From sequence record SRR2962707_5121: a stretch of DNA of 34,108 bases, one strand, 5' to 3'. Of the stretch, positions 11,312-34,107 are shown piece by piece. The position numbers were made by a program, and so were the translations under genes. A model generated the notes under the pieces. That model had not been told where the DNA came from and did no database searches. It saw nothing but the letters and a program-made list of their open reading frames with translations. Position 1 is the first letter of the stretch. Each line of letters opens with the position of its first letter.

Positions 11312-11323
11312 TCGGAGAACCTG

Positions 11324-13638: not shown

Positions 13639-13719
13639 AAAGAAAGAGCTGTCTACGGCAGGGTATGATGGTTGTCAGGCTGGACAGGCAAAGCGCGGGC
13701 GTGGCAGGAGCCGCTCATG

Positions 13720-16560: not shown

Positions 16561-16621
16561 GGCGATCCCCTCCTTCATGAGGAAACGAGTGGTCAGCGCC
16601 ATAGTTCCTGCCGCTTGTCGA

Positions 16622-18317: not shown

Positions 18318-18335
18318 TTGATCAAGAGTCCGGTT

Positions 18336-18350
18336 GTTCTCATTTTGTTC
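18336..18350. promoter_or_regulatory. Alphaproteobacterial LexA (SOS) box
   Basis: GTTC-TCATTTT-GTTC is an exact GTTC-N7-GTTC match, located between divergent genes. Confidence 0.85.
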
Positions 18351-18393
18351 CCATTCTATGACTCCGGTCCCATGTTTGCGCAAGAGGGGTCAA

Positions 18394-18981
18394 TTGGCGA
18401 AAGGAACGGACAGGCTCAATCAGTTCAAGCCGACATCGCTGCGGATCGAGTGCATCCGATGCAAGCGCATGGGTGAGATGCGGACCCATAAGGCGGTCCA
18501 AGCTTATGGCAATATAACGCTCGATGAACTGGCGCGGCGGGTAGCAGAGAACCGGGGATGCGCTTTGGCGGTCGCCGGCGATAATGTTTGCAGCGCCCGC
18601 GTTGTCGAACCTCCATTCGACAGTTGGGCCAGGTTACAAGACGCGCTCCAAGATGGTTGGACCGCCACACTTTATTGTCAGCGGCGCTATTATGCGCTCA
18701 AGCGGGTCCAGCCGTGTCCGCCCGTACCGCTCGACGTCGCCACGCTCGTCGGCGCCTTGGGTTCAGATTACCGACTGGACCGGCTGGAGACAAAAGCCAG
18801 ATGCCCGCACTGCGGCACCGACGGGGTAAAAGTCCACTGGCATGAACCTGCACCGGAACCTGATCCAGGCGGAACGACACAAAAGACCCCGGTGCTGCAA
18901 CTTCGCCCTTCGGGGGCGGCGCTGGGGCGGCGACGGTTCCGGGTCATCAATCGGATGGGAAAGGCAGTTGAGGGATCGTAG
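18394..18981 (+). CDS. Cys-rich putative zinc-binding hypothetical protein
   Basis: TTG start after GAGGGG; motifs CIRCKR, GC...C, YC...PC and CPHCG. Confidence 0.65.
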   Translation: MAKGTDRLNQFKPTSLRIECIRCKRMGEMRTHKAVQAYGNITLDELARRVAENRGCALAVAGDNVCSARVVEPPFDSWARLQDALQDGWTATLYCQRRYYALKRVQPCPPVPLDVATLVGALGSDYRLDRLETKARCPHCGTDGVKVHWHEPAPEPDPGGTTQKTPVLQLRPSGAALGRRRFRVINRMGKAVEGS

Positions 18982-18986
18982 GCGGA

Positions 18987-19523
18987 TCACCTGGCGAAAA
19001 ATGGCACCACCCAGACGAACAACAGAAGAAACGCCACCACACCCAAAACCACAACGTCGCCTTTCATAAGCCGTTCTTTGCCGGTGCGAATATTTCTTAT
19101 CGTTTGCCACGCATTCCAGCACCCCCGAAGCGAAAACGAGACGACCTCGGCCGCCAACCACCAAATTATGGCCCAAGCCACAATCGAGATGAGCAAGAGC
19201 GCCCAGCCGGGGGTAGAATAGGGGCCAATTTCGAAGAAGGCCAAAATGCCTGGCGTGGCGCTGTCCAAGGCCCTAAGAACTTGGACCGATGGTTCGATGA
19301 ACGAGAACTCGAAACCCTTGGCGACGTCGCGGATGGTGAATTTTCCATCACGCGTTATGTCGCCACCGGGCGACAAGCTGACGAAATACCACGCGCGGCC
19401 AATAATCCAGATCGGCACGCCGATGAGAGCGACGAATATGCCGAGTATGTGCGCGCTTTCCCGGCGCATATGGAGAGCCTGAAGCGCTTCATACGCATCT
19501 CGGCGGTTGTCTGCTTCCGTCAT
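18987..19523 (-). CDS. Hypothetical integral membrane protein (about 3 TM)
   Basis: Hydrophobic stretches ILGIFVALIGVPIWII, WALLLISIVAWAIIWWL and VVVLGVVAFLLLFVWVVPFF. Confidence 0.7.
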   Translation of the reverse strand: MTEADNRRDAYEALQALHMRRESAHILGIFVALIGVPIWIIGRAWYFVSLSPGGDITRDGKFTIRDVAKGFEFSFIEPSVQVLRALDSATPGILAFFEIGPYSTPGWALLLISIVAWAIIWWLAAEVVSFSLRGCWNAWQTIRNIRTGKERLMKGDVVVLGVVAFLLLFVWVVPFFAR

Positions 19524-19675
19524 GAGCCCCACCCCGTTCACGGAGATTCTGCATTAAGTGCAGCGCGGCCGCAATACAATGTGAAGCCTGGCCAAGATGT
19601 AGGGAAGCAATCGTTGGCTGCTGACCGACTATTCTGGTGTTGCCTGATTGGTTGGCCCGATTACTGAGGGGCGCC

Positions 19676-19777
19676 TCAGCGTCCTTGGCCGCGCACCATA
19701 ACCATGGCAACGGTTGCCACTGTCCCGCCGATCATAATCCCAACGACAAGGCCGACCAGTAAGCTGAATAGGTCCAT
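19676..19777 (-). CDS. 33-aa single-TM peptide
   Basis: GGGGGA RBS, then MDLFSLLVGLVVGIMIGGTVATVAMVMVRGQGR. Confidence 0.55.
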   Translation of the reverse strand: MDLFSLLVGLVVGIMIGGTVATVAMVMVRGQGR

Positions 19778-19885
19778 CTGATCCCCCAATAAGATGCCGC
19801 CCGCCAGGCGCGGCGCCCTGCACGGCGGGCGGCCCTTTGCAACGCATGGAAGGTGTTGCCCCAGTACCCTGACACAGGCGGCGAG

Positions 19886-19930
19886 AAAAAACGAGCCGCC
19901 TGCGGGCTTGGGGGCATTGCAGACGGCTCG
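19886..19930 (-). terminator. Rho-independent terminator after the ejection-like genes
   Basis: Minus strand reads CGAGCCGTCTGC-loop-GCAGGCGGCTCG followed by TTTTTT. Confidence 0.75.
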
Positions 19931-20044
19931 GCGGCCGTTGAAAATCAACTTGCCGCAACAGATAACGCGATGCCGGTATCTAATGTTCTGGCAGGTGTTC
20001 GGTTGACTGGCCACCATCGCAAACACGGCTCTTTGAACGGAGTC

Positions 20045-22690
20045 TTAGCGCGCGCCCGCCATAATCAAATCCACCAGATCGGGCTCTCGCTCGTCAGTCG
20101 TCGCCGCCGCTCCGCCGATCATGCCGGTCGCAGTACGGGAAAGCACCTGGGACAGCTTGCCCTCCTGCTGCGGCGTGATGCGATCGCTCGGGGTCAACAA
20201 GATTTCGAAAAGCTCCCGATCGCCGGCCACCGCCTGCCGGATCAATCCCTCTGCGCGGTCGAGCGTCAGCGTTTCGAGAATGCGTTGCATCCGCTGCGAG
20301 GCGAAGTTCGCCGTGAGCAGCGATGCGCCGCTCGTACCCCGACCGGCCTGGGCGCCCATGCGGGCGGCGAGCGTCCTGGCGATCATGCTGACCATCGAAT
20401 TGGGCTCGCCTTCCATGACGCCGCCGACATTGGGCAAGCGGCCCTGCATGGTCTCAAAGCGGGCGAGCTCGTCGGCGATCGCCGCGAACCGCGACCGTTC
20501 TTCCATCGAAAGCAGATTGTTGGCCACCGCCAGCACGCGATTGTCGGCCAGGGCGTTCTGCATGGCCCGCCCGGAAAGGATCGGTGCGCCTGTGTCATCG
20601 AAAGCGCCCGTGCGCGATCGGGCCATCAGTTCATCAACGAAAGCGCCTTTAAGACCGAAAAGAGCCTGGCCAGTCGGGTCACCGGCCGCCTGGGCGACAA
20701 GCTGGGCCGTCGCCTGCTGTGGGTTCGACGCGTTGATGATCGAGCGGATTTCCTCATTGGGCCTCGCGCTGGAGAAAAGAAGCGGCGCCGATTGCCGTGA
20801 ATTGAGCATCGAGGATGTCTCATCGATCCGCTGGAAAAACGCTTCGGCGGCATCGGTCGGCAGGATCATGCCGATCTTATCGCGCACTGCGCGGCTGGAA
20901 AGCTGGGTAAGGGCCTGCTGGGCTTCACGAATGCCCACGTCCGGGTTCGCCATCGCGGCGCGAACGTTCGAAAGCGTCTCATCGAGATAGGACCGCACGC
21001 CTTGGCGCACAAAGGCGAGCTCGGGCTCGGTCATATCGGCAAGCCGCTCGGCGGCGAAGTCGCGCGCCGTGCCTGACCTGAGTAAATCCTGGCCGAACAG
21101 AAGTGCGTTGCGCTGCTGGATCGGCGTAGCGGCCGTGGCCACCGCTTCACCATATTGCGGGTTGGCCTCGCCCAGCGCGCCGCGAATATCACGCGCCAGA
21201 TTGCCCATGACGCGGCCGATGTCGGTCGTGCCACCAAGAGCACCTTGCCCGTCGCCGCTCGCGGCCATCTGGTTGAGGGCGCGGGTGATGTAATCGATCT
21301 GCCGGGTGTCGGGCATCCGAGCAAACGTCACGGTGCCATCCTGGCCGATATTGGCCATGATCTGCTCCGACTGGATGCCCTCGCCCGCCATAAGCCGGTT
21401 CGCCAGCGCGATTGCACCGGGCGCGGCGCGCTCGACGCGACCGATCAAGCCTTCGAGCGTTCGGCCTGCCTCACCAGCGTAGTCGATCGGCTGGGCATAT
21501 GCAGCGTCGTAGGCGGTGCTGCGCGCCGGCTGGCTTCCCGTGCGAAGAGCGGTCGAAACGTTGGTGACGCCAAGCGGCCGCCCGAATGCTTGGTCGAGCG
21601 TAGCGCCGAGACCGTCGACGCTCTGCTGGACGGTTTGCGCCATGTATTGGCGCGCCGCGGTGCTCGGGACGCCCTGGGCGGGCGCCGCGAGTTCGTCGCG
21701 CAGGATCTGCCCGCTGCCCAGCTCGCGATCACGCATGATCAGGTCAATGGTCGGATCAGTGTCGCGCACGGTCTGCTCGAGGCCCATGAGGCGCCTTTCG
21801 CCTGTCGAGACGGCCGGGGAAAGATCGCTGATCGTCGGCGTATTGAGCGCGTTGATTGCAGCGTCGGGATCTTCGACCAGTCCGGCAACGCGGCTGCGGG
21901 CACGCTCCAACGCCCCCACTTCGGTGAACGGGGCGATTTCGCTGGCGGCAAGCCGGGAGCCCGCAGCGATGGCGCCGCCGATCCCCGGAGTGTGCTGGAC
22001 CCCTTGCCACCCAAGATATGGGCCGGCGCCGCCGGCTACGCCCCCGACGAGCGCGCCCAGCGTCGAGGCGACGGGATTATCGGGCGCAACGCGATTGGCG
22101 ACGTCCATGCCAGCCCCGGCCCCGGCGCCCGCTGCAATCTCGGACGCGAAACCGCGAACCGGCGTTTGAACGAATGGCTGGGTGAGCGTGTTGCCCACAG
22201 CTTGCGCCATCGGCGAGGCCGTGGACGACATGAGACGCCCCGCCACCCCTACCGGGCCGATCGCACCCGCTGCGCCGCCTGCACCGGCGAAAATATGCTC
22301 GATCAGCGTCTCGGGCTGAATATCGGGCGGGGCCGCGTCGAAGCCCATGGCGTTGAGGCCGCGGTTGATACTGGCCGATCCGCCGAAAGGCTCGTCGATC
22401 GTCGGGATTCCCCAGCCCGTAACGGCATTGACCCCGGAAACACCCGCGTTGAGCGCCCCAGAGATGGCATCTACGGGAATGCCGAGCCCCTGAGCGAGCC
22501 CCTGATTGAGAAACGCGCCCAAGTGCGGCCGCTGCTCGGGGGCCGGTTCAGCGCTGCCATCGCCATCCAGGACAAAGCCGTCGGGCGGCGGAGGGGGGTC
22601 GGAATACCGAACCGTAATCTGCAACGGCGCGCCCGGTACGTGCGGCGGCTGATCAAGGACGAACCCGGAAGGCAAATTGACGCTCGCCAT
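20045..22690 (-). CDS. Large putative phage DNA-ejection / internal virion protein (881 aa)
   Basis: N-terminal duplicated P(S/D)GFVLD motif, a Gly/Ala-rich hydrophobic region, then a long Ala/Arg/Gln-rich helical body. Coupled to the upstream gene by TAATG. Architecture recalls podovirus DNA-transfer proteins (P22 gp16-like position). Confidence 0.65.
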   Translation of the reverse strand: MASVNLPSGFVLDQPPHVPGAPLQITVRYSDPPPPPDGFVLDGDGSAEPAPEQRPHLGAFLNQGLAQGLGIPVDAISGALNAGVSGVNAVTGWGIPTIDEPFGGSASINRGLNAMGFDAAPPDIQPETLIEHIFAGAGGAAGAIGPVGVAGRLMSSTASPMAQAVGNTLTQPFVQTPVRGFASEIAAGAGAGAGMDVANRVAPDNPVASTLGALVGGVAGGAGPYLGWQGVQHTPGIGGAIAAGSRLAASEIAPFTEVGALERARSRVAGLVEDPDAAINALNTPTISDLSPAVSTGERRLMGLEQTVRDTDPTIDLIMRDRELGSGQILRDELAAPAQGVPSTAARQYMAQTVQQSVDGLGATLDQAFGRPLGVTNVSTALRTGSQPARSTAYDAAYAQPIDYAGEAGRTLEGLIGRVERAAPGAIALANRLMAGEGIQSEQIMANIGQDGTVTFARMPDTRQIDYITRALNQMAASGDGQGALGGTTDIGRVMGNLARDIRGALGEANPQYGEAVATAATPIQQRNALLFGQDLLRSGTARDFAAERLADMTEPELAFVRQGVRSYLDETLSNVRAAMANPDVGIREAQQALTQLSSRAVRDKIGMILPTDAAEAFFQRIDETSSMLNSRQSAPLLFSSARPNEEIRSIINASNPQQATAQLVAQAAGDPTGQALFGLKGAFVDELMARSRTGAFDDTGAPILSGRAMQNALADNRVLAVANNLLSMEERSRFAAIADELARFETMQGRLPNVGGVMEGEPNSMVSMIARTLAARMGAQAGRGTSGASLLTANFASQRMQRILETLTLDRAEGLIRQAVAGDRELFEILLTPSDRITPQQEGKLSQVLSRTATGMIGGAAATTDEREPDLVDLIMAGAR

Positions 22691-24294
22691 TACATCGGCT
22701 CCCATTGTCCGCTGCGGAAGATGACACGCTCACCCGTGGTGGGGTTCGTGGCCGTTGCGCCTTCTTGCGGCCCGGCGTCACCCGGCGACGGTGGCACGGG
22801 CGGGCTCGGGGGTGAGGGCGGGGCTGGCGTCGGTGTCTGCCCACCGCCATCGAATGATTGCAGAGCGTCGGTAACGCGACCGATTGCGGCCCGCAGTCCG
22901 ATCACGCGGGTTTCGGTTTCCTGCCGATTGGTTGGGCTCAAGTCGCCGCGCAAGGTTTCCTCGGCGGTGCTCAACTCGTCGGTGAGCGAGCGGCCCAACG
23001 CCGTGAGTTTTGATTGGGCGGTGCCTGAACCTTCAAAGACGTTCCCCGCGCGTGGCGTAAGCGCCTGGATATTCTGCAAGAGCCACGACGGTGGTTGGCG
23101 CGGATACGCTGAGGCGATGTCGTTAAGCAGCGTCTCCCGGAGCACATCGAAGTCCGATTGCGTCTGCTGGACCTCGGGATATGGCGCACCAGCGCCCACC
23201 GCGTCGAAAACGGTATTGATGCCGCCTGTGAGGGCACCGCCGACGCCAAAGGCTTCAGGCGAGTTGGAGAAGCGAGTGCCGAAGGGGCTTTCGCTGTTTT
23301 CTTCGTCGCGCATGATGGCGTCGAGCGTCGGATCGGTCGCGTCACCTACCGCGTTGAAAGCCCCGTCGAAGGTGCCACCGCCCGCTGGCGTTGCGGCGCC
23401 ACCGCGCGAAACGGGTTCGCCCGTTGCCACGTCCAGAACAAGCGCATCGCCCGTGACCGGGTGACGGCTCACGGTGTAGCGATTATCGACGATGCCGATT
23501 GCGAGGTTCCGCGCTTCGCTGGGATCGGCTGTAAGGCCCGTATCGATGAACTGCTGCGACAGGCGGTCAATCTGGGCTTCGGCGGCGCTGCTGCCACCGC
23601 CGGAAGCCGCTGGCGTTGCCCCGGTCCGGGTTGCGGCGCCCGGTGTCATGAACACCGGCTGTCCGTCCGGCCCAAGTGCCTCAACAGGCGTGCGCTCGCC
23701 CATGATGGTGTCGTGAATGTCCTGATCGGAGAGCATCCCCGACATACGCAGACGCTCGCTCTGCGCGGCGTCCCACTCGCTTTCCGTCAGCGGCTTTTCA
23801 GGACCGGCGAACATTCCACCACCGGCCGAATGCGTAACTTCGCCAGGCGCAAGATTGATGTTGCCCGTCATGATCTGCGGCAAGCCGGTCGCGCCTTGGG
23901 TCTGACCAGGCAGAAAGGCTGTCTGGTTCTCATTAACGAGAATGGGCGCTGCGTTCTGGCGATCGAGCGCGCCAGCATTGTTGATGTTGGCAACGTCGAG
24001 CGCTGAACGATGGCCCACGTCCTGCCCACGCATGGTCGTGGCGTTGTTCCGGTCCACCGCTGTCATCGACTGGCTGGGGTTGAACATGCCAGCACCGACG
24101 CCTTGGCGACTGATCGCTTCCCAGTCCGTATTTGGATCTTGGGTCAGGGCGTAGAACTCGGCGAGACGCTGGGCCTGCTGGCGCGTGGCATTGGCGCTCG
24201 CATATCCCGCGAGTTCTTGCCCTGACGGCGGGCGAAAAATTTCTGCTAAGTTTTGCGCGGCTTGGGCCAAGGCAGGATTGTTCACAACGGCCAT
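22690..24294 (-). CDS. Putative phage DNA-ejection / internal virion protein (534 aa)
   Basis: Gln/Ala/Asn-rich N-terminus with NNATTMRGQD, a Pro-rich linker, and C-terminal EGATATNPTTGERVIFRSGQWEPM, a motif type I associate with podovirus DNA-transfer proteins. GAAGGGG RBS. Confidence 0.65.
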   Translation of the reverse strand: MAVVNNPALAQAAQNLAEIFRPPSGQELAGYASANATRQQAQRLAEFYALTQDPNTDWEAISRQGVGAGMFNPSQSMTAVDRNNATTMRGQDVGHRSALDVANINNAGALDRQNAAPILVNENQTAFLPGQTQGATGLPQIMTGNINLAPGEVTHSAGGGMFAGPEKPLTESEWDAAQSERLRMSGMLSDQDIHDTIMGERTPVEALGPDGQPVFMTPGAATRTGATPAASGGGSSAAEAQIDRLSQQFIDTGLTADPSEARNLAIGIVDNRYTVSRHPVTGDALVLDVATGEPVSRGGAATPAGGGTFDGAFNAVGDATDPTLDAIMRDEENSESPFGTRFSNSPEAFGVGGALTGGINTVFDAVGAGAPYPEVQQTQSDFDVLRETLLNDIASAYPRQPPSWLLQNIQALTPRAGNVFEGSGTAQSKLTALGRSLTDELSTAEETLRGDLSPTNRQETETRVIGLRAAIGRVTDALQSFDGGGQTPTPAPPSPPSPPVPPSPGDAGPQEGATATNPTTGERVIFRSGQWEPM

Positions 24295-24307
24295 GAGATT
24301 GCCCCTT

Positions 24308-24790
24308 CTAGTGGACGGGATCGGAGGGAAGACGCGGCGTATCCATCAGCCGCTTCATGTGGAGGGCATGGGCAAGCGGAAATCCTCGGCCGCGAAGATC
24401 GCGGTCGTGAAAAGCGAGCTTGAGCCGCGCCGAGAGAATGCAGGAGTAGTTGAGCCGGTCATGGTGAAACTCGTCCCGCCCGACCGTGAGCAGCCCGGAG
24501 GCGTTGCCCAACATGAAATAAATGTCTTCGGCGGTGATATCGTCTGCCACCGCTTCTGCGAGTGCGGGCGCGATGCCGAAAAGGGCTTCGTGCATCGCCT
24601 GCGCCAGTTCGGCACCCAATTGTGTCAGGTCCGGGCTTATCACTGCGGCTTGGCAAAGCGCATCGAGGGCGTTGGAAACATCGACGAGAATTAAACTCTG
24701 CCTCGGCTTGGTGCGCTTGATCAGCCCAAGGGCGCCGTGAACGCGTTCGTGCGCTGCCTGCTGGTGGGATTGCGCATCGGGTACGGTCAA
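24308..24790 (-). CDS. Hypothetical protein (160 aa)
   Basis: TTG start overlapping the upstream TGA, with GGAG RBS. Its stop is 14 bp before the next ATG. Confidence 0.6.
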   Translation of the reverse strand: MTVPDAQSHQQAAHERVHGALGLIKRTKPRQSLILVDVSNALDALCQAAVISPDLTQLGAELAQAMHEALFGIAPALAEAVADDITAEDIYFMLGNASGLLTVGRDEFHHDRLNYSCILSARLKLAFHDRDLRGRGFPLAHALHMKRLMDTPRLPSDPVH

Positions 24791-25371
24791 GTCGCCAACT
24801 CCGGTTTTGAAGCGGAGCCCAATGCAATCGAGCGGAGGTCTGCGACGTCCTTGGCGGCGCGCTCCTTCATCCGCTCTTCGATTTCTTCGGCCAAGCAGAT
24901 GTTGTGCATCAGGTTTTGGAAGATCCGAGCGTAGGCGTAGATATCGAGCCGCTCGTCGTCTGACGGCCCAAGACGGAAAAGATCGTAAGTCCAAAGCTCA
25001 ACGATCTTTTCCAGAGTGTCGAACCCGTGGCGGGTGATCTGGCGCGTTACCGGGGTATCTTCCCAGAACATGCAGGGGTTGGCCCACCGCGCGGCTCGGG
25101 CAGCGTTCAGAACACGATCGCGCTGGCTGGGGGTGAGATAACCCTTATCGTCGCCCTTCCGCCCCGCCCGCCGGCTGTGCACAACCGCGCTGCTGAAAAC
25201 GTGCGACAGGCAATAATATCTGTCGTGGCCCTTGGCGACGGAATTGAGCCAGCCAATGACTACCTCCGCATTGTAGTAATCTTCGTCGTGCTCCGGCGGA
25301 ATGGGCGGCTCGCCCTCGAACTCGGGCGTACCTTCAAAGAGCGAACTTACATCGTTGCTGTCATCCGACAT
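24787..25371 (-). CDS. Hypothetical protein (194 aa), first gene of the ejection-gene operon
   Basis: GGAG RBS before ATG 25371; acidic N-terminus. Confidence 0.65.
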   Translation of the reverse strand: MSDDSNDVSSLFEGTPEFEGEPPIPPEHDEDYYNAEVVIGWLNSVAKGHDRYYCLSHVFSSAVVHSRRAGRKGDDKGYLTPSQRDRVLNAARAARWANPCMFWEDTPVTRQITRHGFDTLEKIVELWTYDLFRLGPSDDERLDIYAYARIFQNLMHNICLAEEIEERMKERAAKDVADLRSIALGSASKPELAT

Positions 25372-25834
25372 GCGCGAAAACTCCAATGTTTCATGGAGAA
25401 TACCGGCGCGGCTGTTGAGTAAGAAGCGGGGGGTATCTGCGCAAAAAACTCAACTCGGGAGCGGTTGAAACGCAAGGACAAGACGTCAAAAGTTCACGCG
25501 CGGCATAAATTGGTATGGCGGTCGGTTGACGTTTCAGCGCGGCAATTTGGACCGGGCCAGGGGGGTGATCCGGGGGTCGGGTGCCACTGGTGCGATCGGC
25601 ACGTTCCTCCACCGCCACCGAACGACACTTCGACTGCGCAAAATGTTGGATTGGTCGGGAGCGTCGAACGACAGCGCGGACAGGAGCCAACAAATCAAGG
25701 GCCACCGTCCGACACGCCGATAAGCCATTGTTTTTGCTATGAAACAAAGTGTCGTTGTAGGCCAATCCATTGCTTGCCAGACACGCCTTCGTCTGCCCAG
25801 AATTGCGCATCAACCCAAAGAAAAGGACTGACCA

Positions 25835-26158
25835 ATGACCAATCGCAAAGCCCAAGACCTCGAAGATCGCGCCCACCACATCGCTAATGCTCTCTTGGTC
25901 GCGGATGAGCCTGACAGCCGGGCGCATCAAATCGCTCGTTCTGCTGAGGCGCTTATTGAAGAACTTAAACAGGTCGTGGGTGCTGAGAAAGCCATTGTGC
26001 TTGCAGAAGGCATCAGGCAGCGCGCCGAGCGGCTTTCTGACGATCTCGACCCTTACAATCCCGATAGCCTCGTGCCGCCCGCACGCCCTGACTGGTTGGG
26101 CGCCGCTCAACTCGCCGTGCGGTATGGCGTAAACGTGGTGCCCTTCGCCCCTCGCTAA
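25835..26158 (+). CDS. Hypothetical helical protein (107 aa)
   Basis: AAAGGA RBS; followed directly by a terminator. Confidence 0.7.
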   Translation: MTNRKAQDLEDRAHHIANALLVADEPDSRAHQIARSAEALIEELKQVVGAEKAIVLAEGIRQRAERLSDDLDPYNPDSLVPPARPDWLGAAQLAVRYGVNVVPFAPR

Positions 26159-26179
26159 CACCGTCCGCCCTGACCGAAG

Positions 26180-26205
26180 AGCCCGGCCATCGCGCCGGGC
26201 TTTTT
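26180..26205 (+). terminator. Rho-independent terminator
   Basis: AGCCCGGC-CATCGC-GCCGGGCT followed by TTTT. Confidence 0.8.
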
Positions 26206-26206
26206 C

Positions 26207-26326
26207 GTGTCCGATTTGCGTACACGCACACGCTACAGCGCAAAACGCGCAAAAAATGTCCGATTAGGGTTGTCTCAAAACTCAATATGCGTCATTCCTA
26301 TAATGTCTATAACCCAAATAGGACAC
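26207..26326. promoter_or_regulatory. Putative res site upstream of the serine resolvase
   Basis: Related half-sites GTGTCCGATTTG (26207), ATGTCCGATTAGGGTT (26256) and inverted AACCCAAATAGGACAC (26311-26326) in an AT-rich spacer. Confidence 0.65.
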
Positions 26327-26332
26327 TTCGAC

Positions 26333-26878
26333 ATGATTGTAGGATACGCACGGGTATCATCGACCGGGCAGAACGAAACGGCCCAGGTCGAGATATTGAA
26401 GGACAAGGGCGCTGAGAAGGTCTTTGTCGATAAGGCCAGCGGCACCAGTCGCAAAGGACGTGAGAAGCTTGCACAGGCGATCGAGTGGGTGCGACCTCGT
26501 GACGTCCTGATGGTGACGCGGCTAGACCGGCTCGCCCGGTCTGTGAGCGACCTTCACAACATTGCAAAAGAGTTGGAAGCCAAGAATGTGGACCTGATCG
26601 TCACCGAGCAGAACATCGACACGACAACGCCAACCGGGCGGCTCATGTTCAATGTGCTGGGGTCGATCGCCGAGTTCGAAAACGATCTGCGGAAAGAGCG
26701 CCAGGCGGAAGGCATAACCAAGGCCAAAGCGGAAGGGCGCTACAAGGGGCGCCCCGCCAAGATCGACCCCAACGCGATCAAAGCGGCGCTCGATGCTGGC
26801 GACAAGCCTACCGAAGTGGCGCGGCGCTTCAATGTAGCGCGCTCGTCGGTCTATCGGCTGGCGGCTTCGGTCAATTGA
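26333..26878 (+). CDS. Serine recombinase (resolvase)
   Basis: MIVGYARVSS, VTRLDRLARS, TPTGRLMFNVLGSIAEFE, C-terminal HTH (VARRFNVARSSVYR). Confidence 0.93.
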   Translation: MIVGYARVSSTGQNETAQVEILKDKGAEKVFVDKASGTSRKGREKLAQAIEWVRPRDVLMVTRLDRLARSVSDLHNIAKELEAKNVDLIVTEQNIDTTTPTGRLMFNVLGSIAEFENDLRKERQAEGITKAKAEGRYKGRPAKIDPNAIKAALDAGDKPTEVARRFNVARSSVYRLAASVN

Positions 26879-27218
26879 AAATGTCGTCGGCCTGATCGTC
26901 TTCGTCGAGATCGTCCCCTGTCGACTTTTCCTGGAATATCCCCATGGACATCGCGACGGCGGCAGAAAGCTCTTCCGGGCTCATTTCGTGGGGTTCTTTT
27001 TCCAACTGAACGCCGTTGCCGCGTTCCAGCAGCCTTGCGGCTTGCAACAGTGTGCGCGAGGCGGACGCGCGGGCGTTGGCCGGTGATTTTTGATCGCCGG
27101 CGACTGATAGCGCTGCCTCATAACCGGCCAGCGCGCCCTCAGTTTGTATTCTGTAGAGTAGATCGGCCTGGATTTGCCGCACCGTCGGCTTTCTGGGCTC
27201 TGTCGGTTCTTTCGCCAT
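26871..27218 (-). CDS. Hypothetical protein, possibly terminase small subunit-like
   Basis: Helical A..ARASASRTLL...LLER and EMSPEEL segments, acidic tail, GAAAGGA RBS; directly downstream of the HGGxSTG gene. Confidence 0.45.
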   Translation of the reverse strand: MAKEPTEPRKPTVRQIQADLLYRIQTEGALAGYEAALSVAGDQKSPANARASASRTLLQAARLLERGNGVQLEKEPHEMSPEELSAAVAMSMGIFQEKSTGDDLDEDDQADDIFN

Positions 27219-27229
27219 ATCGTTTCCTT

Positions 27230-27757
27230 TCAATCAAAAATGCTGCCGCGCCGAAGGGCAAGCGCATCGGCTTCAAGTTGCGCGATAACCTTGTCGATCG
27301 CTTCCATTTCGGGGTTGCTTGGACGAGGTGGTGGCGCTGCTAAGGTCTTGCGCATCGCTGCGGCCTGCTCACGGCGCAAACGCACCTCGCGACGACGCGC
27401 GGCAGATCCGGCCGGGTGTTCCTTGTGCCACTTCTCATATGCCGCGCGGCGTTCGGGGTTCATATCCCGGAGCATCTGTTTCCGCTGCGCGCGGGCGCGA
27501 TCGAGGTCCTCTTCTTTCTGGTGCAGCTTTTCGATCGGGGAGTTTTTGTTCGGCCAACGCGTTTTGTGCCAGTTGTCGCCCTTCGGGGTTCGGCCGCCAT
27601 GCAAGCAACAACGCCCATTTGCCATTGCCAGGCGCTTGCAGGGTTCGCCCGTCGATTTCGCCTTCGCGCCGCATTTTGCCGCGTAGGGACGCATCAACGT
27701 GTTCCATATCTGGATAGCGCGCCGGCCGTTTTCTGATCGCCTGATCGATTTGCTCAT
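27230..27757 (-). CDS. HGGxSTG domain-containing protein
   Basis: CGAKAKSTGEPCKRLAMANGRCCLHGGRTP. Confidence 0.8.
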   Translation of the reverse strand: MSKSIRRSENGRRAIQIWNTLMRPYAAKCGAKAKSTGEPCKRLAMANGRCCLHGGRTPKGDNWHKTRWPNKNSPIEKLHQKEEDLDRARAQRKQMLRDMNPERRAAYEKWHKEHPAGSAARRREVRLRREQAAAMRKTLAAPPPRPSNPEMEAIDKVIAQLEADALALRRGSIFD

Positions 27758-27883
27758 ATCCCGACCCCCATTTTAGAATAGCGTTCTTGAGGTATGATCG
27801 CGCGAACAGCCCTAAGCGGGGCGTTCCGCCCGCTCAACCTCTTGGACAATTTGTCTAAACAGCGAAGAACAGCCCGAACCGGG

Positions 27884-27996
27884 TTTGTCGCAAATGTCAC
27901 CGGAAATGCCCCTAAACAGTGAAACAGTTCCCAACATAAAAAAGAGGGGTGTTCACGATATTTGTCTTCGTGCGCGCAAGTGACATTTGCGACAAA
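27884..27996. repeat. Perfect 17-bp inverted repeat (candidate replication origin)
   Basis: TTTGTCGCAAATGTCAC (27884-27900) and GTGACATTTGCGACAAA (27980-27996), immediately downstream of the rep gene. Confidence 0.8.
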
Positions 27997-28007
27997 ATGA
28001 GCCCTCA

Positions 28008-30827
28008 TTAGCTAAAAACTCCCTCGTCATATCCACTTTGGGAAACAAGCCCCTCTTTCCGTATCCGGCCCGCTGCCGCAATTTTGAACTGCCGCTCGGC
28101 GCGTTCCTGCTTTTCGCGCTGGCCGCGTTCCTTAAATCGCGTGTGAATAAGGGGATCGACCGCCCATTTTGTCGGCCCCGTTGCGTCACGATCCAAAACC
28201 CTGCACCAGCCAAATGCTTCCAGCTCTGCCATTGCTGACAACAAGAGACGATTGCCGGGCTGGCTGAGATGTTTCCTGGCGCGATAAATCGTGCGTCGAT
28301 CGATGGTCGCGAGGTCTGGCCGCGTCAGCAAATAGCCGGCGATGGCCTGTGCTTCCGAAGCGGTGCCTGATGGATCGAAATACTGGCTGTAAAACGCATA
28401 GGCATGGTCGAGCAAAAGGTCGGCGAGCCGTCCCGTCATTTCGACCGTATCGACGTCCACCAGTTGGGAAGGATCGAAGCCCCCGCCCTCTTCGAAGCAG
28501 CGAACGACATGCACGATCAAGATCAGCCGAAACAGAAGGCGTTCCCATTTCGATATATGACCCTGAAACTCGACGGGTGTGCCTGGTGCGTGTTTCAGTT
28601 TCTCCATTCGATCACGGATTTTCTGCGCCAACGCACCAGCTTCGGGCGTTAGCCGTATCGGCCCGCTCAACACCGGACCCGCTGTCACCAACTGCTCGAT
28701 CATGTTGACGTACCATTGAGCGGCTTCACGGTCGGGCGTTGCATCTGCGCTGCGGCGTTCTCTCCCGTCCGGCAGAATAAATATGAAGCGCTGCCCCAAG
28801 CCGTCCGCAAACAGGCCCTTCATGGTCTCTTTCAATTTATCGGGCTGGGTAGTGGCGATAACGGAGAGCGCCGCACTCGGCGCGCTGATCGTTCCCGAAC
28901 CAACTCGGGTGGACTTGAGGCCCTTGCCTTCAAAGCTGCGCAGAAGGTGCGCCCTGTCTGGACCGCCGCCCTGCTTATACGCCCCCAACCCGCCAAGCAG
29001 CGCCGCCAGCTCGTCGGTATTGCTCAACACACCGCGAGGATTGTCACGGAAAACGCGGATCTGGGCTTCCATTGTTGTGCTGTCGACGGTGAGGTGCCGC
29101 ATCGCAGGTTCTGGCCCTGGGTCCGCCGCTGTCTTCGATCCTCGTTTGTATGCCCTGTCCGCTACCGCCCATTTTGCGTGCCGCGCCTCATCTTCCCTGA
29201 GCCAACGGCTCTCGATTTGCTCCAAGGGCTTGATTGCAGGTTCGATCACATGAGATTTGGCGCTGCCCGGATTTGCGACGAGCACAGTCCAGAGATTGGG
29301 CATCTCAAGCCAGCTATCATCGTTCTGTCCGACCTGAATGCGAACCTGAGCGCCAATCGCCGCACCGATTGCGGTCAGGAATGGTGCCGCGGCAAATATT
29401 TCGGACGTGCCCTTGCGAAGCGCCTCGTCTTTGATCCGCCGTTCAAGCATTGGCGGCAATGCGCCAGCGGGAATGTCGGCCAGCCGTGCCGGATCACTAT
29501 CGCCGAACAGGTCCAGCGGGCCATTATCGCGATCAAGGAAAACGACATCGGCGCTCTGTTCCGGCTTCTGGTCGTTTGCTGTGGGTGGATTGTCATCGCC
29601 GGTCGGCCGCTGCGGACTATCCGGCGCGCTCGTCACCTCGTCAGGTTCTTCGTCCATATCTTTGATGTGTTCATCAACGAGGCGGTCGATTTTCCTTTTG
29701 GAGTTTACCCAGCAACGAGCGATCTCACGTTTGGTGATCACGTCGCTGTGCTTGTCGCCAGCCTTCACCGCCCCATCCCAAACCCAAAGCAGCGCGCCAA
29801 ACTCTTCGATGGCAAAGCCGCTGTTCCGGTGAAGCCGCCCGCCAAGATTGAAGCGGCGTGTCGAAGCCGTGCCGTCCTTTTTCAGCTTCGCCCCATCGTA
29901 CCAAAGGGCGGACAAGTCAGGGTCATCCTGCAATGCGGCTTCGAATTTCTTCCGCAATCCGGCATCAAGATCGCCGTACTCAGGCGCGGCCTGCACATAG
30001 CCCATGTTGAGAAGCGCCATGGTGGCGTTGATTTCTTCGTTGTTGTCGGTGTCGTTGCTCGATTTGATCTTTGGCTCGTAGCGCCTGGCGATTTCGGGAA
30101 GAGAATAGCGCTTGCCCGACTGGTCGAAGATGCTGGCCGGTCGGCGGACGCGGCCCTTGGCGATCTTGCCGGCGTCAGGAATATTCTCGGTGCCCGGCAA
30201 ACGCAGCAGCGTGGCGATCTCTGCGACCTTCGTGTCGCCCTGCAAGATGTCAGCGAGCCCATAGCATTGTTCTTCGACAAATTGCATGTAGGCATCAACG
30301 TCGAGTTTTTCGTCCAGCATCCAGATAAGCTGAAACCCGCCGCCGCTGTCGACTGTGACCGTAGGGGGAAGATCGCTGTCGCAGAGCGCGCGCACCTTTT
30401 CCTCAATAAGCCGTCGATCGGTCGCGTAGTCTTCGCCAGGGTCCAAATCGACGCAAACGCCCCGAAGCGAGGCAATATCGCTCTTGCTGAGTTTGCCGTA
30501 GCTGTCTTTGTTGGCGGGCGCCCCGGCCTTTGCCTCGTTCATCGAATAATAGACGTTCTGCTTCCCGGACCGCGCGGCGATCCATGCAGACATACCTTTC
30601 CAATCGCCCGGCTCGAACGTTGCGCCGCCCTTTTTGCCGGTCTGGGGATCTTTGGCCCACAGGTTATGCCTGCCAGTGGGGTCCAGCAGCTTTAGCAATG
30701 CAATCGCAGGCTCGTCAGGTTCAGTCTTGCCATCGGTTTGGTGGGCGGGGCGAACCTCGTCGGATATCGTCGCAATGTAGTCGCCGAATTGCTTTATCGG
30801 CGCGGTTTTGCTATAAAGTTCTGGCAT
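28008..30827 (-). CDS. Replication protein: N-terminal RepB/AEP-like primase domain plus C-terminal DUF3987 (helicase-like) domain
   Basis: N-terminal VCVDLD, TVDSGGGFQLIW and LLRLPGTEN. C-terminal PNLWTVLVANPGSAKS, DSTTMEA, DELAALL and GLGQRFIF. Confidence 0.82.
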   Translation of the reverse strand: MPELYSKTAPIKQFGDYIATISDEVRPAHQTDGKTEPDEPAIALLKLLDPTGRHNLWAKDPQTGKKGGATFEPGDWKGMSAWIAARSGKQNVYYSMNEAKAGAPANKDSYGKLSKSDIASLRGVCVDLDPGEDYATDRRLIEEKVRALCDSDLPPTVTVDSGGGFQLIWMLDEKLDVDAYMQFVEEQCYGLADILQGDTKVAEIATLLRLPGTENIPDAGKIAKGRVRRPASIFDQSGKRYSLPEIARRYEPKIKSSNDTDNNEEINATMALLNMGYVQAAPEYGDLDAGLRKKFEAALQDDPDLSALWYDGAKLKKDGTASTRRFNLGGRLHRNSGFAIEEFGALLWVWDGAVKAGDKHSDVITKREIARCWVNSKRKIDRLVDEHIKDMDEEPDEVTSAPDSPQRPTGDDNPPTANDQKPEQSADVVFLDRDNGPLDLFGDSDPARLADIPAGALPPMLERRIKDEALRKGTSEIFAAAPFLTAIGAAIGAQVRIQVGQNDDSWLEMPNLWTVLVANPGSAKSHVIEPAIKPLEQIESRWLREDEARHAKWAVADRAYKRGSKTAADPGPEPAMRHLTVDSTTMEAQIRVFRDNPRGVLSNTDELAALLGGLGAYKQGGGPDRAHLLRSFEGKGLKSTRVGSGTISAPSAALSVIATTQPDKLKETMKGLFADGLGQRFIFILPDGRERRSADATPDREAAQWYVNMIEQLVTAGPVLSGPIRLTPEAGALAQKIRDRMEKLKHAPGTPVEFQGHISKWERLLFRLILIVHVVRCFEEGGGFDPSQLVDVDTVEMTGRLADLLLDHAYAFYSQYFDPSGTASEAQAIAGYLLTRPDLATIDRRTIYRARKHLSQPGNRLLLSAMAELEAFGWCRVLDRDATGPTKWAVDPLIHTRFKERGQREKQERAERQFKIAAAGRIRKEGLVSQSGYDEGVFS

Positions 30828-30875
30828 CAAATTTCACTTTCTGGCCAGTTCCCGTTCCCGCGGGCGCTGGCCTTT

Positions 30876-31121
30876 CTATTTCGTGTTGTCGATGACGAGG
30901 CGCAGATGCGAACCGGTTCTGACGGCCAGTTTTTCGCGCGCCTGCTTGTTGAGAAGACGCTTCAAGCTATCGAGCGAGACGGCATGACGTCCGTCCAGCT
31001 CCATAGGAATAAGCGGCCCGAAATTGCGATTTGATCGTATCCATGACGTGGACCGGCCGGCGATTTTCGCTGCCTCGGCAATGGTCACGGCGCGATCTTC
31101 TGTGGGCTCTACGTGCAGCAT
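30876..31121 (-). CDS. Small HTH DNA-binding protein (excisionase/AlpA-like)
   Basis: VTIAEAAKIAGRSTSWIR...VSLDSLKRLL; GGAGG RBS. Confidence 0.7.
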   Translation of the reverse strand: MLHVEPTEDRAVTIAEAAKIAGRSTSWIRSNRNFGPLIPMELDGRHAVSLDSLKRLLNKQAREKLAVRTGSHLRLVIDNTK

Positions 31122-31143
31122 GTTCTAACCTCCGGTGGGTCGG

Positions 31144-32085
31144 TTATTGTGCTGCTCGACGTGTTGAGTTCCCACTGGGGTCGGGCGGGCTGCTTTGCGC
31201 AATAGCGCGCCGTTTCTGCTCGGCCTTGAGCGCAGCCAATTCATGCTCAATCATGGGGAGTACGAAGGTCGCATTGTTTGGGGCGACCCGGCGCTTTTCG
31301 ACCAAATCGGCGCAGAGTTTGTGGATCTCGCCTGTGTCAATCAAGCGAAGCAAATCGGCTTGTGCTTTGTCGCCGCCACTGTGCTGGCTGCCGCCCAGGT
31401 ATTCCCAAAGGGCGAAATTCAGGTGAGCGTTCCACGCGAAATGTTTGGCCCACACCTGCCACAGTTCGTGCCGTCGACCGACATTGGCGCGAACGGTTTT
31501 CATGAAACTGTAAAAGGCGTCACGCACGTTCCAAGGCGTGACGCTCTGCAATGAAGCGGGAACACCTTGGTCGAGAAAGGAGGCCGTAGCTGTGGTCTTG
31601 CCCTGCCCGAAAGCCATATGAACACCGGCGATCGTGCCGTGAACGGTCTCGGCCGCAAACTTATAGTTGGTAGCGGTCGGCTTTGGGACTGGTTGAAGCT
31701 CCAGCCCGGTCGATCTGCGAAACGCCCGCATTTTGGTCAGCGCCGTATCGTCCAAGAACGGATCGAACCGCTCTGATTTTAGCAGGTTGTCCGAGACGCC
31801 AGTTTCTTCCAAGGCATATGTCGTCGCGAGCCGGAAGACCTGTTTGGTTTCATCAAACCCCCGGATGATCTGCTCGATCTCCGGCATGGGCAAGTGTCCG
31901 ACCAATTCCGGGAAATTTGGTTCGAACATCAGATCGATGGGGTAGCTCTTGTCGAAACCCCAACTGTGCTCGTTGCGCACCAGACAAAAGCGAAGGTAAT
32001 TCGTGCTTTCCGTTGTGCGTACTGTGGCGCGGTGCGGCGGCTTTACAGTCGCGGCCTCGTCCATTTCGTCATCCCAATCGCTCAT
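31144..32085 (-). CDS. Hypothetical protein (313 aa)
   Basis: GGGAGG RBS, starts 2 bp after the upstream HTH stop; no recognisable motif. Confidence 0.7.
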   Translation of the reverse strand: MSDWDDEMDEAATVKPPHRATVRTTESTNYLRFCLVRNEHSWGFDKSYPIDLMFEPNFPELVGHLPMPEIEQIIRGFDETKQVFRLATTYALEETGVSDNLLKSERFDPFLDDTALTKMRAFRRSTGLELQPVPKPTATNYKFAAETVHGTIAGVHMAFGQGKTTATASFLDQGVPASLQSVTPWNVRDAFYSFMKTVRANVGRRHELWQVWAKHFAWNAHLNFALWEYLGGSQHSGGDKAQADLLRLIDTGEIHKLCADLVEKRRVAPNNATFVLPMIEHELAALKAEQKRRAIAQSSPPDPSGNSTRRAAQ

Positions 32086-32087
32086 GA

Positions 32088-32387
32088 TCAGCCCTCCCAC
32101 GACGCGCGAGCGCGTTCAGTGCGAGCACGGCGAGCGTGCTGCCCTCGATCGGAAGGCGTCCAATCCTCGGCACTGTCGAGCAGCGCGATGAGGCTTTTCG
32201 TGGTGACGAGGGTGCGACCGGCCAGGCGCTTGAACTCGAGGCGCCCGGCGCCATTCAAGTTGTAAAGCGAAGTGGTCGAAATGCCCGCAATTTCACTTGC
32301 GCGGGAAACTGGGAGGTATGCGGAATTGCGCCAATCGATAGACTGGCCAGCGTAAAGATTTGCGGGAGTGGTGGCGCTCTGTGTCAT
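32088..32387 (-). CDS. HTH excisionase/AlpA-like protein
   Basis: LPVSRASEIAGISTTSLYNLNGAGRLEFKRLAGRTLV; AGGAG RBS. Confidence 0.8.
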   Translation of the reverse strand: MTQSATTPANLYAGQSIDWRNSAYLPVSRASEIAGISTTSLYNLNGAGRLEFKRLAGRTLVTTKSLIALLDSAEDWTPSDRGQHARRARTERARASWEG

Positions 32388-32645
32388 CGTTTTCTCCTGA
32401 ACGAGCGAGCACGGCCAGCTACGGGCCTTGCTAAGTTTTCGTGGAGCGCTAAGCGAGAAAAACGATGGTAACGATGATAACTAAACCGCGGTCTCCAATC
32501 GATATGCTGACAAATGCCAGCACCGGAGACCCAGCCTCATGTTAGACGCCGACTTTGAATGTCAGCGCAACCTGCGACCGTGGCGCGCAGATTCTGTATA
32601 ACAGAGGGATTCCATCTATGGCAATCAAAAATAACCAATATCGAG

Positions 32646-33953
32646 TTAAAAAGTGAACGAGGCCCGACGCGCAAGGTCTTCCGTCATGTCTACGATGAAC
32701 GCCGAATAGTGTTTCTCGATCATCTCCGACGACGTGTCGTGCAAGCTGGCGACGAGGCGGATCGGCAAACCCGCCTTGAGCCCGCGCACGATCGAGGAAT
32801 GCCGTAGGGCGTACATGATCGTATCAGTCGGCACCTCGGCACGCTCGACGGTCGCGGCCCAAGGCTTTTCGATTTCATACGCTGGGCCCCAAGGGCGTCG
32901 GCAATCCTTTTCCCATTTGAACGGGCCGATATTGCGATATGCCCACCGCATCAGAAGGGGCTCATCGGCTGCGCGACCTTCCACCGCCGGCAACAGCTTT
33001 TCGATCACCGCATCGGATAGCGGTACAGCAACGGGCGGACGCGCGGTTGCGGAGCGGCCCTTACTGGCCCCTGGCACCATGATGCGCTTGTTCTGGATCT
33101 GGACCCCACCGACGCGAATGCGTGTGAGCTGAGAGTAGCGGGCGCCGGTGCTGGCAGCGAGCAACGTCAGCCGCCCGAAGTCGCCATCAGCATCCACCGC
33201 GAAGGCCGCATCAACCACCGCCTTGATTTGCTCGTCGGTCAGCAACTGCTTGCGGGCTTCGGTCGCAACGCGCCCTGCCCTCGTGCCAACCTTGATTTCG
33301 GCGGGAAGGGCTGCGGGCAGTTGCCGCCGGTGTTTCTCGGCGTTGGCATTGAGCGCGGCCCGTAGATCGTTCAGCAAACGATTGACCGACGACGGCGCCA
33401 GGCGCTTCCGGTCGTCATCAGGCGAGGGCTCGGCAGTGAGCCGTTCGCGCCATTGCTGGATGGTGGCGGCGCGTAACTTTGAAAGGGGCGTCTTTGCGAA
33501 AGCTTCGTCGCTCAAAACATAGTTCTCGAGCCGCCCCTTCGTGATCGTGCCGTCACGCTTCGATCGCGCGAGCCGTTCCTTGACGTATTCGTTGATAGCG
33601 GTTGTGACAGTTGGACCGGTTCGCGGCGCTGATGCCTCCCGGCCCTCGATCGCTGCGTGCTGTTGGTGTCCCCATTCAAGCGCCGCAGCCACCGCCTTGC
33701 GATAGGTCAGCGCGCCATGAGGTGCGCCGTCATCATCGGCAGCGCCCAGACGTTCCTCGACGCGGTTGCCTTCCAGCACAACCTTGGCCACCCAACTGCC
33801 GTGCGCTCGCGCGGGCTTGCGGTAGCCAAGAGACACGCCACCGCGGCCCCCGCTTACGCCAAACCAATACGGGTTCTTGCGCGGCTCCAGGCGAGCCCGC
33901 TTGGAAGGGGTGTCGATCTCGGTTTTTAGCGTCTGTCCCACACAGCGTCCCAC
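32646..33953 (-). CDS. int: Tyrosine recombinase / integrase
   Basis: N-terminal arm-binding region (SLGYRK...GSWV), TGARYSQ, YALRHS, LHDTS and IEKHY catalytic region; adjacent to the tRNA fragment. Exact start is uncertain. Confidence 0.92.
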   Translation of the reverse strand: MGRCVGQTLKTEIDTPSKRARLEPRKNPYWFGVSGGRGGVSLGYRKPARAHGSWVAKVVLEGNRVEERLGAADDDGAPHGALTYRKAVAAALEWGHQQHAAIEGREASAPRTGPTVTTAINEYVKERLARSKRDGTITKGRLENYVLSDEAFAKTPLSKLRAATIQQWRERLTAEPSPDDDRKRLAPSSVNRLLNDLRAALNANAEKHRRQLPAALPAEIKVGTRAGRVATEARKQLLTDEQIKAVVDAAFAVDADGDFGRLTLLAASTGARYSQLTRIRVGGVQIQNKRIMVPGASKGRSATARPPVAVPLSDAVIEKLLPAVEGRAADEPLLMRWAYRNIGPFKWEKDCRRPWGPAYEIEKPWAATVERAEVPTDTIMYALRHSSIVRGLKAGLPIRLVASLHDTSSEMIEKHYSAFIVDMTEDLARRASFTF

Positions 33954-33957
33954 ACAG
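33935..33957. repeat. Tandem 11-bp direct repeat (putative integrase arm-type sites)
   Basis: GTCCCACACAG at 33935-33945 and 33947-33957. Confidence 0.65.
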
Positions 33958-33998
33958 ATGGTAGTTGCGGGAGTTTTACAGATTAGAGTGCGTCATCG

Positions 33999-34011
33999 CA
34001 AGCTATTGATT
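33999..34011 (-). promoter_or_regulatory. IHF consensus site
   Basis: Minus strand AATCAATAGCTTG fits WATCAANNNNTTR and lies between the arm repeats and the att core. Confidence 0.6.
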
Positions 34012-34057
34012 TTCAGGCCATAATGCATAGAATGCTCGCAAGACGTGTGTCGCCTAT

Positions 34058-34107
34058 CTGCCCTCCGAAGGCAGAGGTCACACGTTCGAATCGTGTCGGG
34101 TGCGCCA
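34058..34107 (+). repeat. att site: 3' half of tRNA-Arg(CCG)
   Basis: CTGCC-CTCCGAA-GGCAG anticodon arm, T-arm ACACG-TTCGAAT-CGTGT, and acceptor strand ending CGGGTGCGCCA. No D-arm or 5' acceptor strand upstream. Confidence 0.88.

Follow-up and report, generated by a model that had tools for sequence, protein, structure and literature searches.

Known phage satellites steal the capsids of their helpers, resize them, redirect packaging, or build heads of their own. Classical Gram-negative phage-inducible chromosomal islands (PICIs), such as EcCICFT073, combine an int-alpA-primase-ori backbone with direct repeats and no shell genes in about 10-15 kb. Other satellites contribute to the virion: capsid-forming PICIs (cf-PICIs) encode capsid, portal and connectors, and P4 encodes Sid and Psu. 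Here we describe an island in sequence record SRR2962707_5121, whose full stretch of 34,108 nt we call the window; the island part was first described at positions 20045-34107. The island belongs to a family found among marine Devosiaceae and is probably a phage satellite that supplies some of the means for delivering its own DNA, in the form of two large proteins, B and C. Judged by their sequences, these are most likely descended from large internal virion (ejection) proteins of temperate short-tailed phages (podophages) of Alphaproteobacteria.

The island shares with the classical PICIs its int-alpA-primase-ori backbone, site-specific insertion with direct repeats, and the lack of shell genes. 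It differs from them in its length of about 21.5 kb, in having no recognisable terS, rpp, ppi or capsid-size gene, and in carrying ejection-protein homologues, a serine recombinase and SOS-linked cargo. With cf-PICIs and P4 it would have in common that a satellite supplies some virion parts or assembly factors, but our scans of the island returned neither sid, psu or delta nor a capsid, portal or connector family of its own. Compared with the internal virion proteins of podophages, the island pair shows partial sequence homology, the same order, the same coupling and an all-alpha C, yet it stands without any other virion gene and without a peptidoglycan-hydrolase domain. For marine virion-encapsidated integrative mobile elements (VEIMEs), which also occur in Alphaproteobacteria, packaging takes place in concatemeric form into heads of full size (Eppley et al., PNAS 2022, PMC9618062). 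Like the island, they are small marine elements that carry an integrase and lack capsid genes; the main text of that paper, on which this comparison is based, uses neither "ejection" nor "internal virion" as a term.

The strongest outside support for reading the island as a satellite comes, by analogy, from EcCIMP1, a PICI of E. coli MP1 that was shown to excise and to be transduced specifically by the P22-like phage vB_EcoP_Kapi1 (Pick, Stadel and Raivio, ISME J 2025, PMC11773190). In the accessible part of that paper its authors state that they identified no structural genes, and similarity to a "DNA transfer protein" is raised only for packaging candidates. EcCIMP1 resembles the island in having an integrase beside a tRNA gene, helix-turn-helix (HTH) and AlpA regulators, a large primase, small genes and two large genes, in the order of these modules, in its similar length, and in the lack of annotated capsid, tail and lysis genes. 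Its RefSeq annotation gives, after the primase, a DUF2824 protein, a 225-aa protein, a "phage DNA ejection protein" (439 aa) and a "lytic transglycosylase domain-containing protein" (906 aa). These ejection genes have no detectable sequence relation to B and C (hhalign probability <1%), so that the likeness is one of design and not of descent. EcCIMP1 also differs in its primase, which is of the TOPRIM/DUF927 type where that of the island has DUF3987, in its host class and tRNA, and in having no annotated serine recombinase, which the island has.

According to the original prediction, no satellite family defined by its own ejection proteins had been described. This holds for the literature retrieved by pairing satellite with ejection or internal-virion terms, in the accessible parts of which no satellite is said to supply ejection proteins; it does not hold at the level of annotation, as the published EcCIMP1 carries annotated ejection genes. 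The present work adds an independent lineage from Alphaproteobacteria, for which the island ends are defined and estimates of selection, a tree and prophages as candidate helpers are available. The island may be regarded as a variant of the PICI-type satellite with ejection-protein homologues. More tentatively, own ejection proteins could represent a general, independently arisen strategy of podophage satellites, in which the loaded proteins decide which cells are entered and which entry blocks are passed. Its cases would be EcCIMP1-type islands with P22-type genes in Enterobacteria and, in Alphaproteobacteria, the present family together with two further island types described below, the modules used having no detectable sequence similarity; we hold this generalization to be conceivable but somewhat doubtful. 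If satellites do supply their own ejection proteins, the satellite and not the helper could set host range and escape from entry exclusion, and predictions of satellite-borne gene flow would change. Since the Devosiaceae lineage is separate from EcCIMP1 of E. coli, the idea is testable by comparison, and the family offers a marine system that is tractable and non-pathogenic, with Pelagibacterium present in synthetic-community data sets.

The two large proteins and their phage relatives

The genes for B (534 aa, 22690-24294) and C (886 aa, or 881 aa from the ATG at 22690; 20045-22705) overlap on the minus strand. The suggestion that they are related to internal virion proteins was borne out by sequence comparison, in which B and C match podophage genes that follow the capsid, adaptor and nozzle genes, B being the apparent homologue of the first internal virion gene and C of the second, larger one. 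Using tblastn, B matched the "putative injection protein" of Rhizobium phage RHph_N65 over aa 19-216 (41%, 7e-35) and gp20 of Paracoccus podophage KLEP18-1 over aa 275-481 (36%, 3e-23). C matched the gene after B in KLEP18-1 (gp21), in RHph_I3_18 and in Microcystis phage Mwe-JY13 (2e-24 to 1e-47). Both gp20 and gp21 of KLEP18-1 are labelled "structural protein" by the depositors. The phage homologues of C are 670-876 aa long, against 886 aa in the island.

The textbook podophage ejection proteins are gp7, gp20 and gp16 of P22, and T7-like phages keep their internal virion proteins gp14-16 downstream of the adaptor and nozzle genes. This is the position of the B-C pair in four annotated phages, where it comes after adaptor/nozzle and acetyltransferase genes and before fibre or lysis genes. 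Relatives of B, phage or metagenomic, carry a phage tail lysozyme or SLT domain as a fusion (PF18013 in P0141, PF01464 in P0153), and the B protein of RHph_I3_18 (protein 015) carries Phage_lysozyme2. Unlike these relatives, neither B nor C of the island contains a peptidoglycan-degrading domain in the Pfam scan. Gene position, domain fusions and depositors' labels together suggest that the phage homologues act in DNA ejection.

An AlphaFold2 model of C (mean pLDDT 83) is all-alpha and had 46 phage matches in BFVD at E <= 1e-3, several of them with SLT, LT_GEWL or M15B domains. Foldseek returned nothing for this model from the PDB at E <= 1e-3, VIA-align returned generic helical bundles only (Z <= 10.3), and the model of B gave only six weak rows in BFVD. 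The ESM Atlas puts C among viral clusters, of which the nearest with a Pfam name is Phage_P22_gp16 (0.96, 179 shared features); we treat this as a lead only. Phage_P22_gp16 (PF26808) had no match in the Pfam copy scanned, which may not contain that model. Comparisons by sequence and by fold did not match B or C to T7 or P22 proteins, and no signal peptide is evident in either. Two database matches were set aside, one to a C-type lectin in the PDB over 25 residues, the sole row given there by sequence for B, C or the profile and taken as chance, and one of C to a PHROG "major head protein" (5.3e-05, aa 66-227), which is weak and lies in a Gly/Ala-rich N-terminus of a protein modelled as all-helical.

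A scan of IMG/VR with a 16-row alignment, chosen over a 70-row alignment that was too diverse, identified 72 loci in which the central domain of C is present, many of them on 36-45-kb contigs; a full-length C alignment gave no relative there. With the proteins of three phages as probes, the order recovered in these loci was major capsid protein (MCP), adaptor, nozzle, A, B, C. Homologues of C were detected in 68 of the 72 loci, of nozzle and B in 33 each, of A in 31, of the adaptor in 22 and of the MCP in 21, the flanks often being short. The integrase, primase and small genes of the island were found in none of the 72. Among 201 Devosiaceae genomes, the C profile had matches at 1e-10 in 14. 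The six that we inspected comprise four with islands and two, G582 and G488, with full prophages carrying portal, MCP, nozzle, A, B and C; the remaining eight are weaker matches and are not included in this count. Order-wide, C itself was matched in two of 401 genomes.

Island architecture, relatives and selection

Most of the components named in the original prediction are present, namely an integrase, two HTH genes, a primase/DUF3987 gene, an inverted repeat, an HGGxSTG gene and two coupled large genes. Between 20045 and 34108 the convincing genes all lie on the minus strand, with the exception of a 107-aa open reading frame (ORF) and the serine recombinase gene. This segment most likely represents two thirds of a mobile island, those nearest the integrase; the whole island would measure about 21 kb and sit in tRNA-Arg(CCG). 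The att site, at 34058-34107 on the plus strand with a 45-nt core at about 34059-34103, is a 3' fragment of tRNA-Arg(CCG) adjoining the integrase. Its tRNA-like part runs for 50 nt from the anticodon stem to the 3' end, while the 5' half is unrelated. The region had been taken for a tRNA-Arg gene with an att site (34032-34107); the att site stands, but a whole tRNA gene does not, as the 5' acceptor strand and the D arm are missing.

The att fragment of the window has 98% identity to both boundaries of the island in a Pelagibacterium metagenome-assembled genome (MAG), namely an intact tRNA-Arg and a fragment on the int side, which identifies it as the int-side att copy and indicates that the island continues to the left of 20045. 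An island end at 20045, as initially drawn, is contradicted by the relatives, which extend 7-8 kb past the gene of the 886-aa protein to an intact tRNA-Arg. The matching leftward stretch of the window, to about 16.3 kb, holds genes for an SOS-response-associated peptidase (SRAP) and membrane proteins. Collinearity with the P. mangrovi island ends at about 16.3 kb, and transposon remnants lie beyond.

The tyrosine integrase (435 aa, 32646-33953, minus strand) matches the phrog_1 integrase at 8.8e-30 and Pfam Phage_integrase at 8.7e-06, just under the cut-off, and is 95% identical in amino acids to the integrase of the Pelagibacterium MAG island. Two small regulator genes on the same strand are paralogues by mutual jackhmmer match. 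One encodes an AlpA/HTH_17-type regulator of 99 aa (32088-32387; HTH_17 0.009, weak) and is kept in three other islands; the other encodes an AlpA-like excisionase or regulator of 81 aa (30876-31121; phrog_66 8.9e-4, weak) and is kept in all islands compared. The replication protein, a primase/DUF3987 helicase-like protein of 940 aa (28008-30830, minus strand; DUF3987 4.3e-53), also matches the phrog_2373 DNA helicase (1.2e-24) and, weakly at its N-terminus, primase PHROGs.

Directly after the primase gene, within a 250-bp non-coding gap, a perfect 17-nt inverted repeat (27884-27900 / 27980-27996) encloses an A+T-rich spacer of 79 nt. Its DNA fold has z = -4.7, and none of 200 shuffles folded equally well. 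At the matching position all five islands compared have their own inverted repeat or iterons, and the region 27884-27996 is a probable replication origin. An AlpA-type regulator, a primase/replicase with an adjacent origin-like repeat, and an integrase at one end adjoining the att repeat, with direct repeats seen in two related islands, are all features of PICIs; the backbone of the island is PICI-like.

Full-length relatives of C with 48-87% identity were found in Pelagibacterium, Roseibium, Arsenicitalea, Devosia and Nitratireductor records, and five genome loci around such relatives were examined. P. mangrovi, the Pelagibacterium MAG, Arsenicitalea aurantiaca and Devosia enhydra share with the window one capsid-less order at 30-85% amino acid identity: hth, alpA, primase, p175, p120, the recombinase on the opposite strand, p199, p165, B and C, where p175, p120, p199 and p165 are small genes described below. 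Pfam, PHROGs and NCBIfam scans of the island ORFs agreed with the first inspection in finding no recognisable capsid, portal, terminase, tail or lysis gene, and the terminase, portal, MCP, adaptor, nozzle and fibre of three reference phages had no tblastn match at 1e-3 in the island loci, the retrieved flanks included. Homologous loci thus exist without a structural module: the four Devosiaceae loci are capsid-less, and two other island types are likewise without upstream virion genes. The islands of the MAG and of Arsenicitalea have an intact tRNA-Arg(CCG) 7-8 kb beyond C and a perfect 45-nt copy of its 3' end at the integrase, so that they are bounded by 45-nt perfect direct repeats at lengths of about 21.9 kb and 21.5 kb, respectively. 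The P. mangrovi island has its integrase module exchanged for a P4-type integrase, and the D. enhydra island adjoins tRNA-Val genes.

Selection on B and C is not relaxed. Pairwise dN/dS values, calculated by the Nei-Gojobori method with many pairs near saturation at synonymous sites, lie at 0.11-0.35 for the two genes (C 0.11-0.28, B 0.12-0.35), similar to the 0.09-0.22 of the integrase. For a tree of the central domain of C, 72 of 83 targets had at least 200 query residues, and 65 distinct rows remained after seven identical ones were dropped. In the resulting quick IQ-TREE search, the C proteins of six islands group in a single clade (SH-aLRT 100), whose sister group (support 89) includes the prophage of the Devosiaceae genome G488. 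The C protein of the island in G231 falls outside the six-protein clade.

That island, of about 11 kb, represents a different type, with a P4-type integrase, an AAA_25 replication protein, a DUF5681 protein, a B with a weak SLT match, and C; the pair is bordered by a chromosomal GGDEF gene after C. Another type, in a Rhodovulum MAG, has an aminotransferase gene, a P4-type integrase and then directly B and C. Within the main family, the window and P. mangrovi have 90% nucleotide identity over 16309-24481. At the protein level C is 96% identical, C and the leftward cargo 86-100%, B 74%, and proteins further right 30-76%. This mosaic identity points to recent recombination between island variants.

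A possible role in DNA entry and its alternatives

We consider it about an even call that the island is a satellite of podophages whose B and C enter helper heads and serve the entry of island DNA; in this picture the packaging of the island, its helper and the loading of the virion are our inferences. Upon podophage infection or induction, the island would excise by means of its integrase and AlpA-type protein and replicate from its own origin. Its DNA would then be packaged into helper-made heads, with B and C assembled inside them, either replacing the proteins of the helper or beside them. The island-carrying particle would finally deliver its DNA with the island's own channel proteins. 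At about 21.5-21.9 kb, the island is roughly half as long as the genomes of related phages (39.1, 43.1 and 41.3 kb), and it may therefore be packed as a dimer, which, speculatively, the serine recombinase would resolve after entry.

Several observations weigh against this proposal. No packaging gene (terS, rpp, ppi or cpm) and no pac or cos site was recognised, there being four conserved small proteins without a family, and the size of about 21 kb exceeds that of classical PICIs. B and C have no match in Pfam, NCBIfam or solved structures, the role of their phage homologues is read from position, labels and enzyme-domain fusions in relatives, and island B had no tblastn match at 1e-5 in the 72 viral loci. 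C is present in one copy in each of the five island genomes, which speaks against a resident helper; any helper would have to come from outside. Searches for an excised circle, a virome occurrence and a helper found none, with none of the 23 listed runs labelled as a virome and no RNA run among those listed, and the contigs aligned to the window contain no circular joint. Finally, no second att copy was found in the window, and with the far end (intact tRNA-Arg, attL) missing from it, this particular copy may no longer be mobile.

Among the alternatives, the one that survives best, if still unlikely, is that the island is a satellite or defence element whose B and C spoil podophage progeny as ill-fitting core proteins or add superinfection immunity. 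Satellites commonly interfere with their helpers, and proteins of the Schlafen AlbA_2/HATPase_c_4 kind, one of which is carried by the D. enhydra island, are often found in defence contexts. EcCIMP1 contributes to the superinfection immunity of the lysogen against its helper, the responsible gene being unnamed in the accessible part of that report. A structural role is nevertheless the better fit to B and C that are full length, retain all domains shared with phages and are under purifying selection across genera. A defensive role also has against it that ten island proteins had no PADLOC match and that neither B nor C has an evident signal peptide for action at the envelope.

It is distinctly less probable that B and C redirect helper capsid assembly in a scaffold-like manner, nucleating or sizing smaller heads for a 21-kb genome. 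The difference in length between the island and the phage genomes of 39-43 kb would agree with such a function, and internal capsid proteins can influence capsid size, as described in the accessible part of a review for T4 Alt and P1 Dar (PMC6893505). The island proteins, however, are no shorter than their phage counterparts (for C, 886 aa in the island and 670-876 aa in phages), and a half-length genome also fits dimer packaging in heads of normal size.

We give similarly little credence to an integrative plasmid-like element that is never packaged by phages and in which B and C have come to serve the cell itself, for instance in its envelope. This would account for the failure to detect a packaging function, and the island, like plasmids, encodes a replication protein of its own and a recombinase of the resolvase type; it also has SOS-linked cargo (SRAP, and UmuDC in a relative). 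On the other hand, the scanned ORFs include no relaxase or conjugation gene, B and C are always found as a pair that keeps both the order and the overlap seen in phages, and EcCIMP1, a proven satellite by the published account as far as it was accessible, has the same layout.

A decaying prophage with deleted head and tail genes is very improbable: integrase and B-C are indeed neighbours on the circular map of related temperate podophages, and the window copy lacks the far att site and abuts transposon remnants, but four genomes from three genera share the capsid-less layout at 30-85% identity, dN/dS is 0.11-0.35, the island C proteins are monophyletic beside a Devosiaceae prophage, the 45-nt att repeats of the MAG and Arsenicitalea islands are intact, p199, p165 and p175 have no phage homologue, the compared phages match the islands, with their PICI-like backbone, only in B and C, and differing hosts, integrases and att sites speak against one recent vertical inheritance.

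Small conserved genes, cargo and flanking DNA

Between the probable origin and the last operon lie three genes that are kept in the window and in the islands of P. mangrovi, the Pelagibacterium MAG, Arsenicitalea and D. enhydra. The first encodes the HGGxSTG zinc-motif protein p175 (175 aa, 27230-27757, minus strand), which scored 27 bits against NF041373, where the cut-off is 29, and in which C29, C40, C50 and H53 are invariant across the five islands. It has no phage match and is unrelated to the DUF5681 protein of the G231 island; the idea of a TerS-like gene at this place gained no support. The second encodes p120 (120 aa, 26871-27233, minus strand), an acidic-tailed island-specific protein without a family in Pfam, PHROGs or NCBIfam. 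The third, on the plus strand at 26334-26878 with its start read from the sequence, encodes a serine recombinase of the resolvase/invertase type (Resolvase 3.1e-41, plus HTH_7), which the original prediction did not mention. It immediately precedes the operon that contains B and C and is on the opposite strand in all five islands. No convincing flanking inverted repeats of an invertible segment were found around it, and our guess is that it serves in multimer resolution.

The 107-aa ORF (25835-26158, plus strand), read from the sequence, has no Pfam family and is followed by a terminator-like hairpin and T-run at 26176-26205; a 256-aa ORF opposite it on the minus strand is probably not a gene. 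The last operon has four genes, for proteins of 199, about 165, 534 and 886 aa. Its first two products, p199 (24787-25386) and p165 (24308-24805, start uncertain), are island-specific proteins encoded on the minus strand and kept in related islands. Neither has a phage match; p199 gave no usable ESM Atlas match, and p165 has only five homologues in a set of 5.8 billion proteins. Promoter and terminator scans gave sites no commoner than in shuffles. Near the integrase, a variable slot holds a gene for a 318-aa protein (31144-32100, minus strand) without a family in Pfam, PHROGs, NCBIfam or PADLOC, with a homologue in the P. mangrovi island only.

Further island cargo extends over 16309-20044, the stretch collinear with the P. 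mangrovi island. Directly after the C gene are two membrane-protein ORFs (18987-19541 and 19676-20026), one with three transmembrane segments and the other with a single C-terminal one; they are shared only with P. mangrovi, where they form one longer frame. A 215-aa ORF (18334-18981, plus strand), the SRAP gene (17241-18383; SRAP 8.9e-18) and small ORFs make up the remainder. SRAP genes are found in or beside four related islands, and in one of them umuD and umuC adjoin SRAP. The cargo stretch is variable, with UmuDC and a trypsin-like protease in the MAG, a peptidoglycan-binding protein in Arsenicitalea and the Schlafen-like protein in D. enhydra. A GTTC-N7-GTTC site, which we take to be of the LexA-box type of Alphaproteobacteria, lies at the start of the SRAP gene of the window (18336-18350), where about 1.15 such sites are expected in the whole window by chance; none precedes the last operon.

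At the synteny break to the left of the island, the transposon remnants comprise an AAA_22 fragment (13653-14099) and an IS481-like HTH fragment (14409-15032). They are followed by a second resolvase gene (15240-15812), a homologue of the island recombinase by jackhmmer. Contigs of several runs break near 13650 and 16200, and one low-depth skip from 24406 to 30237 (side 20) was disregarded. The nearest genome, G001, is without the island and has only the window part 988-13722 in common. Within this part, the block made up of 988-1524 and 2968-13722 is 97-98% identical to G001, which belongs to another family than the Pelagibacterium MAG, and a DDE transposase gene (1809-2750) interrupts it. 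The block carries genes for a TRAP transporter, a GFO/IDH oxidoreductase, a LigXa-like Rieske oxygenase with its reductase, EamA transporters and a MarR regulator, and it looks like a recently transferred catabolic block.

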